DNA of 64,000 nucleotides, taken from Escherichia coli. GTDB taxonomy: Bacteria; Pseudomonadota; Gammaproteobacteria; Enterobacterales; Enterobacteriaceae. The position numbers and the translations under genes are program-made. Positions within the stretch are counted from its first letter, which is position 1, and each line of letters opens with the position of its first letter. The stretch is taken from assembly GCF_044324875.1 (NCBI RefSeq), contig NZ_CP172185.1. One strand, 5' to 3'. Below are positions 14,653 through 63,877 of the stretch, piece by piece. The notes below the pieces were generated by a model. It was not told the DNA's origin. It did not search any database and was given only the letters and a program-made list of their open reading frames with translations.

Positions 14653-16011
14653 ATGTCGCATAACGTTACTCCAAACACCTCTCGCGTGGAATTGCGTAAA
14701 ACGCTTACGTTAGTTCCGGTTGTAATGATGGGTCTTGCCTATATGCAGCCGATGACGCTGTTTGATACATTTGGTATCGTTTCAGGCCTCACGGATGGTC
14801 ATGTGCCGACAGCCTATGCGTTCGCATTGATTGCGATCCTGTTTACGGCTCTGAGCTACGGGAAGCTGGTTCGCCGCTATCCTTCTGCTGGCTCTGCATA
14901 CACTTACGCCCAGAAATCCATTAGCCCGACTGTCGGCTTTATGGTGGGTTGGTCTTCTCTGCTCGACTATCTGTTCGCGCCGATGATCAACATTCTGCTG
15001 GCGAAAATCTATTTTGAAGCTCTGGTGCCTTCCATCCCATCGTGGATGTTTGTGGTGGCGCTGGTGGCCTTTATGACCGCCTTTAACCTGCGTAGTCTGA
15101 AATCCGTAGCGAACTTCAACACTGTAATCGTCGTGTTGCAGGTAGTGCTGATCGCGGTGATTCTGGGCATGGTTGTTTATGGCGTATTTGAAGGTGAAGG
15201 CGCGGGTACGCTGGCGAGCACTCGTCCGTTCTGGTCTGGCGATGCGCATGTTATCCCGATGATTACCGGGGCGACAATCCTGTGCTTCTCCTTTACCGGC
15301 TTTGACGGCATCAGCAACCTGTCGGAAGAAACCAAAGATGCAGAGCGCGTGATCCCGCGTGCGATTTTCCTGACCGCGCTGATTGGCGGCATGATCTTCA
15401 TCTTTGCAACTTACTTCCTGCAGCTGTACTTCCCGGATATCTCTCGCTTTAAAGATCCGGATGCGTCACAGCCTGAAATCATGCTGTACGTTGCGGGTAA
15501 AGCGTTCCAGGTTGGCGCGCTGATCTTCTCCACCATTACCGTACTGGCGTCCGGTATGGCGGCGCACGCAGGCGTAGCGCGTCTGATGTACGTAATGGGT
15601 CGTGACGGCGTGTTCCCGAAAAGCTTCTTCGGTTATGTACACCCGAAATGGCGTACTCCGGCGATGAACATCATCCTGGTTGGCGCGATTGCCCTGCTGG
15701 CAATCAACTTCGACCTGGTAATGGCTACGGCGCTGATTAACTTTGGTGCGTTGGTGGCGTTCACCTTCGTTAACCTGTCGGTCATCTCGCAGTTCTGGAT
15801 CCGTGAGAAGCGTAACAAGACGCTGAAAGATCACTTCCAGTATCTGTTCCTGCCGATGTGTGGTGCGCTGACCGTTGGTGCGCTGTGGGTTAACCTGGAA
15901 GAAAGCTCAATGGTTCTGGGTCTGATCTGGGCTGCTATCGGTCTGATTTACCTGGCATGCGTAACCAAGAGCTTCCGTAACCCGGTTCCGCAGTACGAAG
16001 ACGTAGCATAA
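14653..16011 (+). CDS. plaP: putrescine importer (APC-family amino acid/polyamine permease)
   Basis: [33 protein letters not shown]...; about 12 predicted transmembrane segments. Confidence 0.85.
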
Positions 16012-22353: not shown

Positions 22354-22683
22354 ATGGAAACTACCAAGCCTTCATTCCAGGACGTACTGGAATTTGTTCG
22401 TCTGTTCCGTCGTAAGAACAAACTGCAACGTGAAATTCAGGACGTTGAGAAAAAGATCCGTGACAACCAGAAGCGCGTCCTGCTGCTGGACAACCTGAGC
22501 GATTACATCAAGCCGGGGATGAGCGTTGAAGCAATCCAGGGCATCATCGCCAGCATGAAAGGTGACTATGAAGATCGTGTTGACGATTACATCATCAAAA
22601 ATGCCGAGCTCTCCAAAGAACGCCGCGATATCTCCAAAAAGCTGAAAGCTATGGGCGAAATGAAAAACGGCGAAGCGAAGTAA
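22354..22683 (+). CDS. yeeX: DUF496-family protein YeeX
   Basis: [56 protein letters not shown]... (109 aa). Confidence 0.88.
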
Positions 22684-22783
22684 TTCCTGTTTTATTCAAT
22701 GAGGGTTGCCCGGCAACCCTCATTGCTCATTGATTCTTTTCTGTGTATCAAAGTCATCATTCCCATCTGATAACCTATCGAAA

Positions 22784-23227
22784 TTAGCGACAGACATCTT
22801 CTGTATGCAGCAAGGCAAAAAGTTCTGTAACTCCATTGTTATTAACCGCACTGGTTACTAACACGTTGTGCGCTCCAGCTTCCCGTAACCAACATTTCAC
22901 CAAAGATATTTGTTCCATGCTGGCTAAATCTGCTTTGGTTACTACTCCAATGACCGGGCGATTCATTGACGAGGTAAAGCCTGGCGAAAAAGGGGACCAC
23001 GGTGCGTCCGCATTAAGCATCAGGGCGATAATGTCCGCTTCGCAGGCGCTGACCAACAATGCTCTGTAGAGGCTGCGGTTTTCGAGGTATTCGCCTGGTG
23101 TATCAATGGTGGTCGGGGACCAGACGATTGCCTGCGTTTTCTGATAATGAATATTTTCGCCACGCAGACATTGCGTGAGCGACGTTTTTCCGCACTGGCT
23201 GGGGCCGATGAGCATCATACGTTGCAT
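22784..23227 (-). CDS. pduV: EutP/PduV-family small GTPase
   Basis: 147-aa ORF with P-loop [10 protein letters not shown]; last gene of the pdu cluster. Confidence 0.85.
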
Positions 23228-23231
23228 AACG

Positions 23232-38636: not shown

Positions 38637-38838
38637 CGAAATAATCTGGCAGCTATAAACGTTTATTTTTTTACTGTTTGTGATCTGCTTTCCGAACTTA
38701 TTAAAAAGTCTCCCGCTTCACGGAGGCTTTTGTTATTGTCCTTTGTGCTTCTCGTCAGTAAATCATCAGGGATGATGTGAAGATTAAATGTAAAACAATT
38801 GTTTTGCTATAACAATAAATTAACTGGGAGGTTTTATC

Positions 38839-39753
38839 ATGATTTCTGCGGCGACACTTAATTCAGAACTCATTAATAAAATCGCGCAGGATTTTGCGCA
38901 GGCGACCAGCCTTGCGGTTGTCGTGGTCAATATTCACGGCGATGAAATTTCCGAGCTGTTTAACTTCACTCCATTTTGTCAGATGATGCGGCAACACTCT
39001 CAGCTTAGCACTCGATGTCGCATGAGCGATCGTTGTGGGGGCCTGGAAGCCTCTAAATCCGATCAGCCTTGTATTTATCGCTGTCATGCCGGATTAACCG
39101 ATTTCTCTATTCCACTGGTAATCGCCGGACATTTAGTTGGTTTTGTATTGTGCGGGCAAGTTCGTCTGCGTAATGATGATGTCGATTTGGTCGATATTCT
39201 GAATGTCGATGATTGCTGGCAGGCAGATCCCGAATTACTTAATGAATTTCGCAAAGTCCCTGAGATGGATTACTCAAGAGTTATGGCCTCTGCTGATTTG
39301 TTGAAGTTGATTGTGGAAAATTGCCTCAAAAAACAACTCAATTTTGTTGTTATTAAAGAGAACAAATTTCAGTCAGATTCGGTGCGCCAGACTCGTGCGC
39401 CTAATCCCCACGACAATAAAATGAAAAAAGCTTTACGCTATATTGATGCGCATTTATCAGACGATTTGCGTCTGGAAGATGTCGCCTCGCACGTTTATCT
39501 AAGCCCTTATTATTTCAGCAAGTTATTTAAGAAATACCATGGGATTGGGTTTAATGCGTGGGTAAACCAACAACGGATGGCCAGCGCTCGTGAGTTACTG
39601 TGCCATAGTGACTGGAGCATCGCCAGCATTGCGCGTAATTTAGGTTTTTCGCAAACCAGTTATTTTTGCAAAGTTTTCCGTCAGACTTATCAGGTTACGC
39701 CGCAGGTGTATCGGCAGCAAGTGAATGAAAATGCGGCGATGGAAACGGTATAG
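38839..39753 (+). CDS. pocR: AraC-family regulator of pdu/cob genes
   Basis: 304-aa ORF with a C-terminal AraC helix-turn-helix; position after pduF. Confidence 0.85.
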   Translation: MISAATLNSELINKIAQDFAQATSLAVVVVNIHGDEISELFNFTPFCQMMRQHSQLSTRCRMSDRCGGLEASKSDQPCIYRCHAGLTDFSIPLVIAGHLVGFVLCGQVRLRNDDVDLVDILNVDDCWQADPELLNEFRKVPEMDYSRVMASADLLKLIVENCLKKQLNFVVIKENKFQSDSVRQTRAPNPHDNKMKKALRYIDAHLSDDLRLEDVASHVYLSPYYFSKLFKKYHGIGFNAWVNQQRMASARELLCHSDWSIASIARNLGFSQTSYFCKVFRQTYQVTPQVYRQQVNENAAMETV

Positions 39754-39869
39754 AGTAAATGCCAAAAAAAAGGAAGGTTTAAATAAACGCTGGAATGAAT
39801 AATTAACGTTATTTACGTGTTATGGGAAAAGTGAAATCAGCTCATAACATACGCTGACAGGTGTGGCAC

Positions 39870-40080
39870 ATTTGTGCCAGGGAAGAGGGTGAAAATCCCT
39901 CGCAGCCCCCGCTGCTGTAATGCTGACAAACCCGAAAATGCCACTGATCGCGAGATTGGGAAGGTCGGGTGAGGATGACGCTAAGCCAGAAGACCAGTCT
40001 GTCAGTCAATACCAACAACTTCGGTGGGAAGTGGGTTGCCCGGAAGCGTCCGGTAGAGTACTGGCGCGTCTTTATACCCC
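39870..40080 (+). promoter_or_regulatory. cobalamin (B12) riboswitch; boundaries approximate
   Basis: Contains the conserved riboswitch blocks ggtgaaaatccc, cgcagcccccgctgctgtaa, gccactg, gggaaggtcgg and the B12-box-like aagccagaagaccag. Confidence 0.65.
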
Positions 40081-40234
40081 TACCACCCTGAAAGGATCAG
40101 GGTATGGCGGCATCATTTAGTTCTTTCATCGCAGTGCCAACAGGCACCAGAGCTGCACTTAAGGTGTGGCAATCTTGTTTCATGGCTCATCAACCAGACC
40201 GCCATTACAGGAAACTAAGTGGAGGGCGAGGGAC

Positions 40235-40672
40235 ATGAAAACGATAAGACCCGAATCGATAGCTCTTTTTTGCCTCTTATCTGGAGATGCGGACCTGGCG
40301 AAACAATTGGCTGAAATATTGCCAATAACTTGTTTTGTTGGTGAGGACTGGCAGCAAGATTTCCAGCCTCTTGACGGTGGGCCTGTGCAATCGTTATCAG
40401 ATGTGTATGGCGATTATTCAGTGCTGCTATTGATAGCAGCTGAAAGCGAGATATCCGTACCAGAATGGCTCGCTCATTCTGAAGGAACGACGGTAATTGT
40501 GATTGCAGAACACAATGCCCGTTTGCTGACTGGTCCGGCTGGTGGGGCTGTAGCATTGATCCATTATCTGAATGAAATCTGTCATTCCAGAGAAACCGCT
40601 GTCAATGACGCATTTTGTCGTACGTTAACACGAGGAAGTCTGGCTATTCCGCAATGCCATCTTCTTTCGTAA
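40235..40672 (+). CDS. hypothetical protein downstream of the B12 riboswitch (possible cbi-deletion remnant); alternative start at 40166
   Basis: Open frame of 146-168 codons with protein-like composition immediately 3' of the riboswitch and 5' of cobU; no family recognised by eye. Confidence 0.3.
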   Translation: MKTIRPESIALFCLLSGDADLAKQLAEILPITCFVGEDWQQDFQPLDGGPVQSLSDVYGDYSVLLLIAAESEISVPEWLAHSEGTTVIVIAEHNARLLTGPAGGAVALIHYLNEICHSRETAVNDAFCRTLTRGSLAIPQCHLLS

Positions 40673-40805
40673 TGGATTGAGAATGCTGGATTTTTAATTA
40701 TATTACGCGCAGTATTAATCGCGTAAATGTTTTGCGGTCAGCAACGGTGGGGGATCCATTGTTCTGTTCAATGAATACCATCATACAAATGAATCAGGAG
40801 TCGGT

Positions 40806-41351
40806 ATGATGATTTTGGTGACGGGGGGCGCACGGAGCGGGAAGAGTCGCCACGCAGAGGCGCTTATTGGGGACTCTTCACAGGTTCTGTATATCGCCAC
40901 CTCGCAAATCCTTGATGATGAGATGGCTGCACGGATAGAACATCATCGGCAAGGCCGCCCGGCGCACTGGCGCACGGTGGAGCGCTGGCAACATCTTGAT
41001 GAATTAATTCATGCAGACATTAACCCGCATGAAGCTGTGTTGCTGGAATGCGTTACCACAATGGTGACTAATCTGTTGTTTGATTATGGCGGCGATAAAG
41101 ACCCTGATGAATGGGATTATCAGGCGATGGAACAGGCAATTAATGCTGAGATTCAGTTGTTGATTGCTGCCTGCCAACGTTGCCCCGCGAAGATTGTATT
41201 AGTGACTAACGAAGTGGGAATGGGGATTGTGCCGGAGAGTCGTCTGGCACGACATTTTCGTGATATTGCCGGGCGGGTAAATCAGCAGCTGGCCGCTGCG
41301 GCAAATGAAGTGTGGCTGGTGGTTTCGGGTATTGGAGTAAAAATCAAATGA
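40806..41351 (+). CDS. cobU: adenosylcobinamide kinase / adenosylcobinamide-phosphate guanylyltransferase
   Basis: 181-aa [26 protein letters not shown]... (P-loop). Confidence 0.92.
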
Positions 41352-42091
41352 GTAAATTATTTTGGGCGATGCTCTCTTTTATTACGCGTCTGCCTGTGCC
41401 GCGTCGCTGGTCCCAGGGACTGGATTTCGAGCATTATTCTCGCGGTATTATTACTTTTCCTTTAATTGGTTTATTGCTTGGCGCGATTAGCGGGCTGGTC
41501 TTCATGGCGTTGCAGGCATGGTTTGGCGTACCACTGGCGGCACTGTTTAGCGTACTTGTGCTGGCGCTTATGACCGGGGGATTCCACCTGGACGGCCTCG
41601 CCGATACTTGTGATGGCGTATTTTCTGCACGTAGCCGCGATCGCATGTTGGAAATCATGCGTGATAGCCGTTTAGGTACCCACGGCGGTCTGGCATTGAT
41701 TTTTGTTGTACTGGCAAAGATTTTGGTGTTAAGCGAGTTGGCTTTGCGTGGCGAACCGATCCTTGCATCGCTGGCGGCAGCATGCGCGGTCAGCCGCGGG
41801 ACTGCCGCATTATTGATGTATCGTCATCGTTATGCCCGGGAAGAAGGGCTTGGCAATGTGTTCATTGGCAAAATTGATGGGCGACAAACCTGCGTCACAC
41901 TCGGTTTAGCCGCTATTTTTGCTGCTGTATTATTGCCAGGTATGCATGGTGTGGCTGCTATGGTGGTGACGATGGTGGCGATTTTCATCCTCGGTCAGCT
42001 TCTCAAACGTACGCTGGGCGGGCAAACCGGCGATACGCTGGGAGCAGCCATAGAGCTTGGTGAACTGGTCTTCCTGCTGGCACTGCTATAA
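41348..42091 (+). CDS. cobS: cobalamin 5'-phosphate synthase
   Basis: [18 protein letters not shown]...; polytopic membrane protein. Confidence 0.9.
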
Positions 42092-42102
42092 AGAGACGTG
42101 AC

Positions 42103-43182
42103 ATGCAAACACTTGCCAATTTACTGAATACGATCCCTGCCATCGATCCTGCCGCTATGTCGCGTGCACAACGGCATATTGACGGGTTACTCAAACCTGT
42201 TGGTAGCCTGGGAAGGCTGGAGGCGCTTGGCGTACAACTGGCGGGAATGCCGGGGTTGAATGGCATACCGCATGTGGGCAAAAAAGCGGTACTGGTTATG
42301 TGTGCCGATCACGGCGTCTGGGAGGAAGGGGTCGCTATTTCCCCAAAAGAAGTCACAGCCATTCAGGCTGAAAATATGACCCGCGGAACAACCGGCGTGT
42401 GTGTGCTGGCAGCACAAGCGGGCGCTAACGTCCACGTAATTGATGTTGGTATTGATACTGCTGAGCCTATCCCCGGGCTTATCAACATGCGTGTCGCACG
42501 AGGTAGCGGCAATATTGCTTCAGCTCCGGCAATGAGTCGCCGTCAGGCTGAAACGTTGCTTTTGGACGTCATATGTTATACGCGGGATCTGGCAAAAAAC
42601 GGTGTCACGCTGTTTGGTGTAGGTGAATTGGGGATGGCAAACACGACACCGGCAGCGGCGATAGTGAGCACAATCACTGGCCGGGCTCCTGAAGAAGTGG
42701 TTGGGATTGGCGCAAACCTGCCGACAGATAAACTGGCTAATAAAATTGATGTTGTGCGACGGGCGATTACGTTGAATCAACCAAATCCGCAGGATGGCGT
42801 TGATGTCCTGGCAAAAGTGGGTGGATTTGATTTGGTCGGAATGGCTGCCGTGATGTTAGGCGCTGCGTCCTGCGGTTTACCGGTGTTGCTGGATGGATTT
42901 CTTTCTTATGCTGCTGCGCTCGCAGCCTGCCAGATGTCTCCTGCAATCAAACCGTATCTCATTCCTTCTCACCTGTCGGCAGAAAAAGGGGCGCGTATAG
43001 CGCTGTCACATTTGGGGCTGGAGCCTTATCTCAATATGGAGATGCGTTTAGGTGAGGGGAGTGGCGCAGCTCTGGCGATGCCCATCATCGAAGCTGCTTG
43101 TTCGATATACAACAACATGGGCGAACTTGCTGCCAGTAATATTGTTCTACCGGGGAATACGACTTCTGATTTGAACAGTTAA
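42103..43182 (+). CDS. cobT: nicotinate-nucleotide:dimethylbenzimidazole phosphoribosyltransferase
   Basis: 359-aa [43 protein letters not shown]... Confidence 0.92.
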
Positions 43183-44234: not shown

Positions 44235-44310
44235 TGGCTCCTCTGACTGGACTCGAACCAGTGACATACGGATTAACAGTCCGCCGTTCTACCGACTGAA
44301 CTACAGAGGA
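44235..44310 (-). tRNA. asnV: tRNA-Asn (GUU)
   Basis: 76-nt reverse complement of tcctctgtagttcagtcggtagaacggcggactGTTaatccgtatgtcactggttcgagtccagtcagaggagcca. Confidence 0.95.
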
Positions 44311-46642: not shown

Positions 46643-46718
46643 TGGCTCCTCTGACTGGACTCGAACCAGTGACATACGGATTAACAGTCCGCCGTTCTAC
46701 CGACTGAACTACAGAGGA
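46643..46718 (-). tRNA. asnU: tRNA-Asn (GUU)
   Basis: Identical 76-nt tRNA-Asn sequence, reverse strand. Confidence 0.95.
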
Positions 46719-48466: not shown

Positions 48467-48542
48467 TCCTCTGTAGTTCAGTCGGTAGAACGGCGGACTG
48501 TTAATCCGTATGTCACTGGTTCGAGTCCAGTCAGAGGAGCCA
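48467..48542 (+). tRNA. asnW: tRNA-Asn (GUU)
   Basis: tcctctgtagttcagtcggtagaacggcggactgttaatccgtatgtcactggttcgagtccagtcagaggagcca on the plus strand. Confidence 0.95.
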
Positions 48543-63801: not shown

Positions 63802-63877
63802 TGGCTCCTCTGACTGGACTCGAACCAGTGACATACGGATTAACAGTCCGCCGTTCTACCGACTGAACTACAGAGGA
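63802..63877 (-). tRNA. asnT: tRNA-Asn (GUU)
   Basis: Identical 76-nt tRNA-Asn sequence, reverse strand, upstream of yeeJ. Confidence 0.95.

Follow-up and report, generated by a model that had tools for sequence, protein, structure and literature searches.

In the 64,000-nucleotide (nt) stretch of the Escherichia coli contig NZ_CP172185.1 analysed here (hereafter, the window), a cobalamin riboswitch lies between pocR, encoding the AraC-type regulator of the pdu and cob genes, and the corrinoid-salvage genes cobUST. Comparative analysis of the sequences indicates that this element is the vertically inherited orthologue of the adenosylcobalamin riboswitch that precedes cbiA in the Salmonella cob operon, and that it is probably still functional in Escherichia, where purifying selection has kept it after the loss of the cbi genes. 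As regards its present target, we consider the chances about evenly balanced that the switch, having stayed functional through the operon deletions, adds a B12-repressible component to cobUST expression on top of a promoter that cobU has of its own.

The Rfam scan of the whole window gave a match to the cobalamin riboswitch family RF00174 at 39842-40016 on the plus strand, to which all features of the locus described below also belong unless stated otherwise. The match scored 104.7 bits (E 3.7e-25) against a gathering score of 31.5 bits and covered positions 1-189 of the 189 of the model without truncation, which confirms the riboswitch that an earlier note on this DNA, made from the sequence alone, had placed after pocR. 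The aptamer begins 88 nt after the stop codon of pocR and ends 789 nt before cobU, a distance that the same note had put at about 0.7 kb.

The loci used for comparison, namely the pocR-cbiA intergenic regions of Salmonella, Citrobacter and Klebsiella, were gathered by a PocR scan of species-representative genomes. The blastn alignment of the window with Salmonella showed 82% identity over 285 nt, from the aptamer into codon 3 of cbiA, in agreement with the proposal that the element is the counterpart of the Salmonella cbiA leader. In an alignment of 11 sequences the homology spans the hairpin 5' of the aptamer, the aptamer itself and the leader, through the ATG of cbiA. The first hairpin (GUUAUG...CAUAAC, 39817-39850), found in minimum free energy (MFE) and centroid folds, lies directly 5' of the aptamer match and overlaps its start, and it has a counterpart at the same place in Salmonella. 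Within the aptamer, the B12 box AAGCCAGAAGACCAG was read from the sequence at 39983-39997, and its first 13 bases are invariant in the nine-sequence alignment; columns 142-154 (AAGCCAGAAGACC) and 156 are identical in 9 of the 9 aligned sequences, while column 155 is variable. The Rfam-derived structure is supported by the same comparison, as 84.6% of the cells are paired, compared with 29-47% when the partners are slid by 1-3 columns.

The expression platform (40017-40103) is the remainder of the cbiA leader and can be aligned, as far as the ATG, with the leaders of Salmonella, Citrobacter and Klebsiella. It ends in a predicted hairpin that would sequester the ribosome-binding site (ACCCUGA-AAGGA-UCAGGGU, 40085-40103), with a stem of 7 bp that abuts the ATG at 40104 and the Shine-Dalgarno sequence in the loop. 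Both kinds of fold, MFE and centroid, show this hairpin in the window, in Salmonella (L084) and in E. albertii (L088), and it aligns column for column with the relatives; the exact 22-mer comprising the hairpin and the ATG was found in the loci L001, L003, L004 and L088-L090.

The position after pocR, the 7-bp hairpin at the ATG and a similar Rfam score (107.1 bits in Salmonella) are therefore shared with the Salmonella cbiA riboswitch, and in both genomes the cob locus continues with cobUST and then an L,D-transpeptidase gene. The two differ in what surrounds the leader. In Salmonella it is preceded by about 340 nt with a promoter-like site and followed by 17 cbi genes, whereas the window lacks that upstream block: conserved blocks that amount to about 250 nt after pocR in Salmonella, Citrobacter and Klebsiella, the promoter-like site among them, are missing, and alignment with these relatives showed that an Escherichia-specific A/T-rich spacer occupies 39754-39841. 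The promoter scan of Salmonella L084 placed the promoter-like TTGTCA-17-AAAAAT at 897-925, about 475 nt before the ATG of cbiA. This fits the published Pcob leader, which we take to be about 470 nt long.

The leader riboswitch of btuB in E. coli and Salmonella belongs to the same RF00174 family, and it works in the mode expected here too, by B12-dependent occlusion of the ribosome-binding site with secondary effects on the transcript. It differs in locus, sequence and regulated gene, which is that of the outer-membrane B12 transporter. The btuB leader was ruled out as the source of the window element, since the homology of the window with the cbiA leader continues through the ATG of cbiA.

The evidence for selection on the switch comes from divergence within Escherichia, expressed below as mean pairwise values in a five-lineage alignment. 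The aptamer (0.055) and the expression platform (0.051) have diverged about 4 times more slowly than the neutral sites of the same alignment, the third codon positions of pocR, cobU and cobS giving 0.15-0.22. The spacer between pocR and the riboswitch (0.156, with indels) is near neutral, and the relic open reading frames (ORFs) described below gave 0.13-0.18, so that the regulatory RNA is the most conserved non-coding stretch of the locus. The slow divergence of aptamer and platform thus shows purifying selection since the loss of the cbi genes, and across the genus the hairpin over the ribosome-binding site and the cbiA start codon have likewise stayed intact under such selection. Likewise, the RF00174 score has not decayed: the seven other Escherichia lineages scored between 105.6 and 112.8 bits, the highest value being that of E. 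albertii, and Klebsiella scored 97.1. On the E. albertii branch, 0 private changes were found among 150 otherwise invariant aptamer sites, compared with 10 among 161 third positions of pocR (0.062 per site).

Behind the switch, the interval between pocR and cobU is not empty: the cbiA leader runs on to its start codon, and two relic ORFs and a remnant of the cbiP 3' end follow; no intact cbi gene was found between the riboswitch and cobU. The first relic ORF, cbiA' (40104-40238, 44 codons), starts at the ancestral ATG, which the alignment places opposite the cbiA start codons of Salmonella, Citrobacter and Klebsiella, and its first 16-20 codons or so resemble CbiA (MAASFSSFIAVPTGT versus MAARHHAFILAGTGS). 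Its TGA overlaps the start of the second relic ORF, cbiG' (40235-40672, 145 codons), as ATGA at 40235-40238. The 133 nt that follow (40673-40805) are a non-coding relic of the cbiP 3' end that includes the ribosome-binding site of cobU. By blastn, window positions 40775-40900 match 15493-15618 of Salmonella L084, where cbiP ends and cobU starts; in Salmonella the cbiP 3' end overlaps the start of cobU, and the last 130 nt or so before cobU in the window align with a diverged cbiP 3' end. Moreover, in all Enterobacterales loci of the PocR scan (and one of Aeromonas) where a full-length cbiG was found, this gene stands at the Salmonella position.

Of the cbi genes, this interval retains some 20 codons of cbiA, some 118 of cbiG and some 130 nt of cbiP. 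Between pocR and cobU, Salmonella L084 has cbiA to cbiP (about 14 kb), while the window has two stubs and then the 133-nt gap. Judged by these alignments, the locus is a Salmonella-type pocR-cob operon minus at least three internal deletions, which would have taken the Pcob region, the middle of cbiA through cbiF, and the middle of cbiG through most of cbiP. The breakpoints would lie at about codon 20 of cbiA, with the loss extending through cbiF, and at about codon 120 of cbiG, with the loss extending through most of cbiP. The earlier note had called the switch orphaned. This holds as far as the cbi genes are concerned, which are gone, but not for the switch itself, which still has its native platform, a start codon and two relic ORFs behind it.

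The enzymes of nucleotide-loop assembly are complete. CobU (adenosylcobinamide kinase/guanylyltransferase, 40806-41351; NF004469, E 3.1e-73, 245 bits against a cut-off of 161), CobS (cobalamin synthase, 41348-42091; TIGR00317, E 1.1e-90, 304 bits against 110) and CobT (nicotinate mononucleotide:dimethylbenzimidazole phosphoribosyltransferase, 42103-43182; NF000996, 461 bits against 306, and TIGR03160, 385 bits against 319) are all full-length and above the NCBIfam equivalog cut-offs. Upstream, PocR (38839-39753) matched NF047788 (TransRegPocR) with E 1.8e-165 and 549 bits against a cut-off of 500. The gene inventory of the earlier note, with the cbi block missing and cobUST, pduCDE and pduO present, was correct.

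The sensitive blastn search with Salmonella cbiH-cbiM (3.9 kb) gave a DNA match in 0 of 5426 complete E. coli genomes, and cbi genes elsewhere in the E. coli genome were rejected on this ground. Corrin-ring synthesis is thus absent across E. coli and the species therefore depends on salvage, as the earlier note had supposed for this organism. This dependence of E. coli has long been known. Surveys have placed cobalamin riboswitches upstream of cobU, cobS, cobT or other salvage genes in other bacteria, and the locus resembles these in having a B12 element upstream of nucleotide-loop assembly genes in a corrinoid salvager; here, by contrast, the arrangement stems from the internal deletion of a biosynthetic operon, and two conserved relic ORFs and an apparent separate promoter intervene.

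The layout of pocR, riboswitch, small coding sequence and cobU was found in 643 of the 5426 complete E. coli genomes at a threshold of at least 80% coverage of the 1.2-kb query, and RefSeq already annotates the riboswitch and the small coding sequence in genomes that bear it. Carriage of the switch tracks the pdu genes, with 636 genomes having 80% or more of the pdu region. Other E. coli have larger deletions ending inside cbiG', some of which join pduV to the middle of cbiG', and every sampled deletion variant retains at least 183 nt upstream of cobU. The K-12 locus (the insertion sequence IS5, a 'cobalamin biosynthesis protein' pseudogene and cobU) is of this kind. K-12 has cobUST in common with the window, together with the 300 nt that precede cobU (the promoter-like site among them) and a salvage-only B12 lifestyle. 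It has lost pdu and pocR, the riboswitch and cbiA', as well as the 5' two thirds of cbiG', of which only the last 144 nt remain as an annotated pseudogene beside IS5. The window thus represents a less degraded state.

The same layout is present in E. whittamii, E. marmotae, E. albertii and cryptic clades, the loci including those of Escherichia sp. E4736 and of two divergent 'E. coli' species representatives. Among the other loci of the PocR scan that reach far enough, none has cobU within 10 kb after pocR. A recent deletion from a Salmonella-like operon was rejected, as the deletions and the ORF layout are common to E. coli, E. whittamii, E. marmotae, E. albertii and the cryptic clades; given this sharing, they most likely arose before the genus diversified. 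Given recombination between lineages, the shared architecture could also have spread later.

In E. albertii (L088-L090, 4436-5877), cobU has decayed into a pseudogene that lacks 148 nt and is frameshifted, cobT has been deleted and cobS still has an open frame, with pdu, pocR, the riboswitch and both relic ORFs intact. The locus is mosaic: in the part from pocR to the aptamer the third-position divergence of E. albertii is 0.205 against 0.214 among the other lineages, while in cobS it is 0.419 against 0.195, with the breakpoint near window position 40100-40150. These values suggest recombination within the relic region. Because the locus is mosaic, E. albertii is weakened as a test case of a switch without cobU.

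The two relic ORFs have been kept open in different ways. In all 8 of the Escherichia lineages checked, cbiA' has exactly 44 codons and the ATGA overlap; its ratio of nonsynonymous to synonymous substitution rates (dN/dS) is 0.5-1.2, which is indistinguishable from neutral. In this it resembles leader and upstream ORFs, such as attenuation leader peptides and ORFs with ATGA coupling, since the peptide is unconstrained and the length, frame and ATGA are strictly kept. It differs from them in deriving from the 5' end of an enzyme gene, and its effect on downstream genes is a putative one. An intrinsic attenuator in cbiA' (40152-40170) was considered and rejected, as it is weak (z = -0.5 against shuffled sequences) and not conserved in E. 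whittamii and E. albertii.

The second ORF consists of the N-terminal 118 or so residues of CbiG and an unrelated tail. The match to NF004463 (cobalt-precorrin 5A hydrolase) covers only positions 1-125 of the 351 of the profile (E 1.6e-17, 63.7 bits against a cut-off of 546), and BLASTP against Salmonella CbiG gave 41% identity over residues 1-112 (E 4e-23). No Pfam domain was found in CbiG' even at E <= 10, whereas the genuine CbiG of Salmonella L084 carries CbiG_N, CbiG_mid and CbiG_C. On these profile and alignment results, the product is to be regarded as a CbiG-derived fragment and not as CbiG; RefSeq labels it 'hypothetical protein' or 'cobalamin biosynthesis protein'. The AlphaFold model is of moderate confidence (predicted local distance difference test score 75, predicted template modelling score 0.69). 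The Foldseek comparison with the PDB returned only generic Rossmann-like matches with E >= 0.02, none having E < 0.001, and the sequence search of the PDB gave nothing below E 0.6. A defence-system role for the relic ORFs was discarded, as PADLOC gave no match.

The cbiG' frame is open at 144-145 codons in 8 lineages, and four phylogenetically independent pairs gave it a dN/dS of 0.33-0.44 (p = 0.041, 0.032, 0.00085 and 0.0021), compared with 0.03-0.17 in the neighbouring genes; a weakly constrained protein is therefore probably encoded. Parsimony counted at least 107 + 274 substitutions in the two ORFs (at least 381 in all), and a substitution placed at random would introduce a stop codon in 3.4-4.1% of cases. 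Under neutrality, the probability that both ORFs should have stayed free of stop codons is then about 8e-7 in the 8 lineages, and 5.5e-4 if the count is limited to the 5 lineages that came from searches with PocR or DNA and not with the ORF product; for cbiA' alone it is 0.012. In the five-lineage alignment the 569 nt of the relic ORFs contain one 3-nt indel, whereas gaps occupy 8 of the 91 columns of the spacer and 12 of the 134 columns just before cobU.

Public alleles of the ORFs vary in length. A 188-amino-acid in-frame fusion of cbiA' and cbiG' occurs among the alleles P0001, P0004, P0007, P0018, P0033 and P0043, and a cbiG' allele of 136 amino acids has a 3-residue deletion and an earlier stop, the K-12 remnant being of the same type. 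Among the forms of 113-119 amino acids, P0018 (119) begins with a new N-terminal sequence, as would be expected if a deletion ended within the ORF, and the C-terminal tail is missing from P0012 (113); the Shigella dysenteriae form has 96 amino acids.

Taken together with the retained platform, these observations can be arranged into the following mechanism for a switch that still acts on cobUST. With B12 bound, the hairpin over the ribosome-binding site would stay closed and cbiA' would remain untranslated, as described for Salmonella cbiA, and through the ATGA coupling cbiG' would not be translated either. With B12 scarce, both ORFs would be translated, and ribosome-protected RNA coming from upstream would continue into cobUST. 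This RNA would come either from pocR by read-through or from the 88-nt spacer, by way of a promoter that is weak and needs an activator; a possible -10 element, AATAAT, was noticed in the spacer at 39798-39803 without a -35 element. The switch would in this way add a B12-repressible and probably propanediol-linked share to cobUST expression, small unless propanediol induces it, while a constitutive promoter at 40677-40704 would supply most cobU RNA in uninduced cells. The role of cbiA' would be that of a leader ORF whose translation matters and whose sequence does not, which is why a near-neutral dN/dS in a frame that is nevertheless kept open is the expected pattern; cbiG' would encode a weakly constrained protein. 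What speaks for this mechanism is the ancestral operon logic, the open and coupled ORFs, the association with pdu, the transcription of the relic and of pocR in LF82 (values below) and the absence of a conserved terminator, the only terminator-like site on the plus strand of 40017-41000 being the weak, non-conserved one at 40152-40170. On these grounds, B12 control of cobUST appears plausible.

A number of results weigh against it. Between the relic and cobU lies a sigma-70-like promoter candidate, TTGAGA-16-TATATT (40677-40704), with 10 of 12 consensus matches, whose -35 hexamer is invariant in seven Escherichia sequences including the riboswitch-less K-12. The 133-nt untranslated gap before cobU makes translational coupling to cobU impossible, and no C-rich, G-poor stretch of the Rho type was found in the relic ORFs (C/G at most 1.33, mostly below 1); this gives no support for polarity but does not argue against it. 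Of the complete E. coli genomes, 88% manage cobUST without the switch, and E. albertii keeps the switch and both ORFs with cobU dead and cobT deleted. The scan of 39754-39841 revealed neither a promoter-like nor a terminator-like site on the plus strand, so that no promoter for the switch was identified. As for the RNA structure, covariation within Escherichia is thin, there being too few changes, and most double changes separate Salmonella from Escherichia. Finally, in strand-specific RNA-seq of the adherent-invasive strain LF82 at 2 h, cobU reached 83.4 reads per kilobase per million (RPKM), the relic LF82_328 (annotated as 'CbiG') 16.7 and pocR 7.3 (PMC4509574); the second values were 13.0 for LF82_328 and 10.8 for pocR (PMC4509574). 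The 2-h level of cobU is thus 5-fold above that of the relic and 11-fold above that of pocR, an excess that suggests a separate promoter for cobU.

All sampled riboswitch-less E. coli keep the stretch 40677-40704. The earlier note, which held that cobUST might still be under B12-repressed control, had itself named cbi genes elsewhere in the genome, together with an independent promoter of cobUST, as a finding that would speak against its view; the promoter is probably there, to judge from the promoter-like site and the LF82 RNA, and the cbi genes were not found in the blastn search described above. A palindrome, TTACGCG-CAGTATTAAT-CGCGTAA, stands directly after the promoter-like -10 (within 40677-40740) and may be an operator or due to chance; it is perfect in E. 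coli and imperfect in E. whittamii, E69 and SCPM. At 2 h, cobU RNA was 2.2-fold lower in the riboswitch-bearing LF82 (83.4 RPKM) than in the pdu-less commensal HS (183.7 RPKM; PMC4509574, supplementary Table B), a difference to which strain background, upstream sequence or the switch could contribute.

The alternative that survives best, though we regard it as distinctly less probable, is that the switch is live and that selection preserves a B12-repressed CbiG', with cbiA' as its leader ORF, while cobUST is expressed independently from its own promoter. It would account for a dN/dS below 1 in four independent pairs, with third codon positions changing fastest, for the evidence of an independent cobU promoter, and for the switch and ORFs that E. 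albertii has kept with cobU and cobT dead. CbiG' also retains residues that are invariant in genuine CbiG N-termini (P6, E7, S8, F12, C13, L14, H93, G100, G103 and Y111), and its structure model is of moderate confidence. However, the identity to CbiG is only 41%, and genuine N-termini of Aeromonas and Salmonella are far more alike (60-70% for the whole proteins); CbiG' has also lost the GATGIAVRVLAPL block and the SGH motif, which real CbiG proteins keep almost unchanged, and neither a Pfam match nor a fold match with E < 0.001 was obtained. The C-terminus is variable, as the 136-residue alleles and the 188-residue fusion demonstrate, and the private changes of E. albertii are nearly flat over the codon positions (10, 9 and 10). 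To our knowledge, no function has been described for an isolated N-terminal fragment of CbiG. A bolder form of the same idea, which we put forward tentatively with perhaps slightly better prospects, is that the cbiA stub has been exapted as a riboswitch-gated leader ORF, of which nothing but frame and length is conserved, and that the cbiG stub now specifies a novel small protein, repressed by B12 and under purifying selection throughout Escherichia. Such a protein would serve propanediol metabolism or the salvage of corrinoids without needing cobU or cobT, in keeping with its persistence in E. albertii, where both of these genes are dead.

It is unlikely that the switch and the ORFs are inert cbi leftovers which persist only by lying between the selected pdu-pocR and cobUST genes. 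The fragments of cbiA, cbiG and cbiP do look like deletion scars, most E. coli have lost the switch with the retention of cobUST unaffected, and cobU apparently has its own promoter. Mere hitchhiking does not explain, though, why aptamer and platform evolve about 4 times more slowly than neutral sites when the adjacent spacer and the relic ORFs are near neutral, why the Rfam scores are undecayed in 8 lineages and the ORFs free of stop codons, or why the E. albertii aptamer has no private change at a time when pocR third positions were changing.

RNA-based control of pdu and eut regulators by B12 riboswitches is known from AspocR of Listeria and from EutX/Rli55 of Enterococcus and Listeria. That the switch is likewise transcribed as a 3' extension of the pduF-pocR mRNA and acts back on pocR and pdu (by stability or termination) or in trans, tying the induction of the propanediol regulon to the B12 supply, would suit the 88 nt between the pocR stop and the aptamer, with no plus-strand promoter or terminator detected there, the co-occurrence with pdu and the retention in E. 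albertii without cobU and cobT, but it seems the least likely of all, as the conserved hairpin over the ribosome-binding site at a start codon points to control of downstream translation in cis, and the LF82 relic RNA exceeds pocR RNA at 2 h (16.7 against 7.3 RPKM), which a separate start site fits at least as well (PMC4509574). A variant in which such a 3' extension of the pocR mRNA feeds the B12 status back onto the pdu regulon is bolder still than the exaptation of the two stubs.

Whichever target is involved, the established picture is unchanged in that E. coli salvages B12 and does not make it. The pdu-bearing E. coli, including LF82, rely on imported corrinoids for the use of 1,2-propanediol in the gut, and if the switch still works, these strains sense B12 at this locus and may tune cobinamide salvage or a small protein alongside propanediol use. 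The locus offers a natural example of a riboswitch that has outlived its operon, in which the RNA is more constrained than the coding remnants and the remnants are kept open. The relics of cbiA, cbiG and cbiP at the Salmonella operon position also bear on the 'loss and reacquisition' account of enteric B12 synthesis, as they suggest that an Escherichia ancestor held the full operon here and lost its ring-synthesis part by internal deletions. The riboswitch family, its RefSeq annotation in hundreds of genomes and the relic coding sequence in the transcript list of LF82 (PMC4509574) are already known, and among E. coli the layout itself is nothing out of the ordinary; of more interest are the selection that has continued to act on the switch since the operon was lost and the possible exaptation of the gene stubs. 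The full-text literature search, whose reach did not extend to Lawrence and Roth (1995, 1996), found no paper on the retained switch or on conserved relic ORFs in E. coli.

The window contains, besides pocR and cobUST, the his leader, the pdu operon on the minus strand, pduF, ldtA, tRNA-Asn, cbl and nac, and these neighbouring genes identify it as Escherichia chromosome. The part 14600-38800 aligned in one piece and with 98.9% identity to a syntenic E. coli genome, the annotation of which includes pduABCDE, the reactivase genes, pduJ-pduV and a two-domain pduO. The pdu operon ends with pduV, adjoining tmaR/yeeX (window about 22355-23228, by homology to L094 7756-8629), and the syntenic E. coli has no annotated pduW (propionate kinase) or pduX (L-threonine kinase of B12 synthesis). 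The pdu operon of Salmonella differs in having both. Between pduF and pocR, on the minus strand, the enterobacterial small RNA STnc230 was detected at 38695-38778 (Rfam, 74.8 bits against a gathering score of 50), and it is kept at every Escherichia locus examined, with 65-76 bits.

Three of the loci gathered for comparison stand apart. A 383-nt contig in a Streptomyces assembly (L065) with a 98% identical PocR fragment and a contig with the E. coli-type arrangement in a metagenome-assembled genome of 'Citrobacter sp.' (L004) look like contamination or mis-binning, and the locus of 'Escherichia sp. MOD1-EC7003' (L038) has a Klebsiella-like full cbi operon. Downstream of cobUST, four tRNA-Asn (GTT) genes (44235-44310, 46643-46718, 48467-48542 and 63802-63877) flank cbl-nac and a further segment of about 15 kb; tRNA-Asn genes are known sites of genomic-island integration in E. 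coli.

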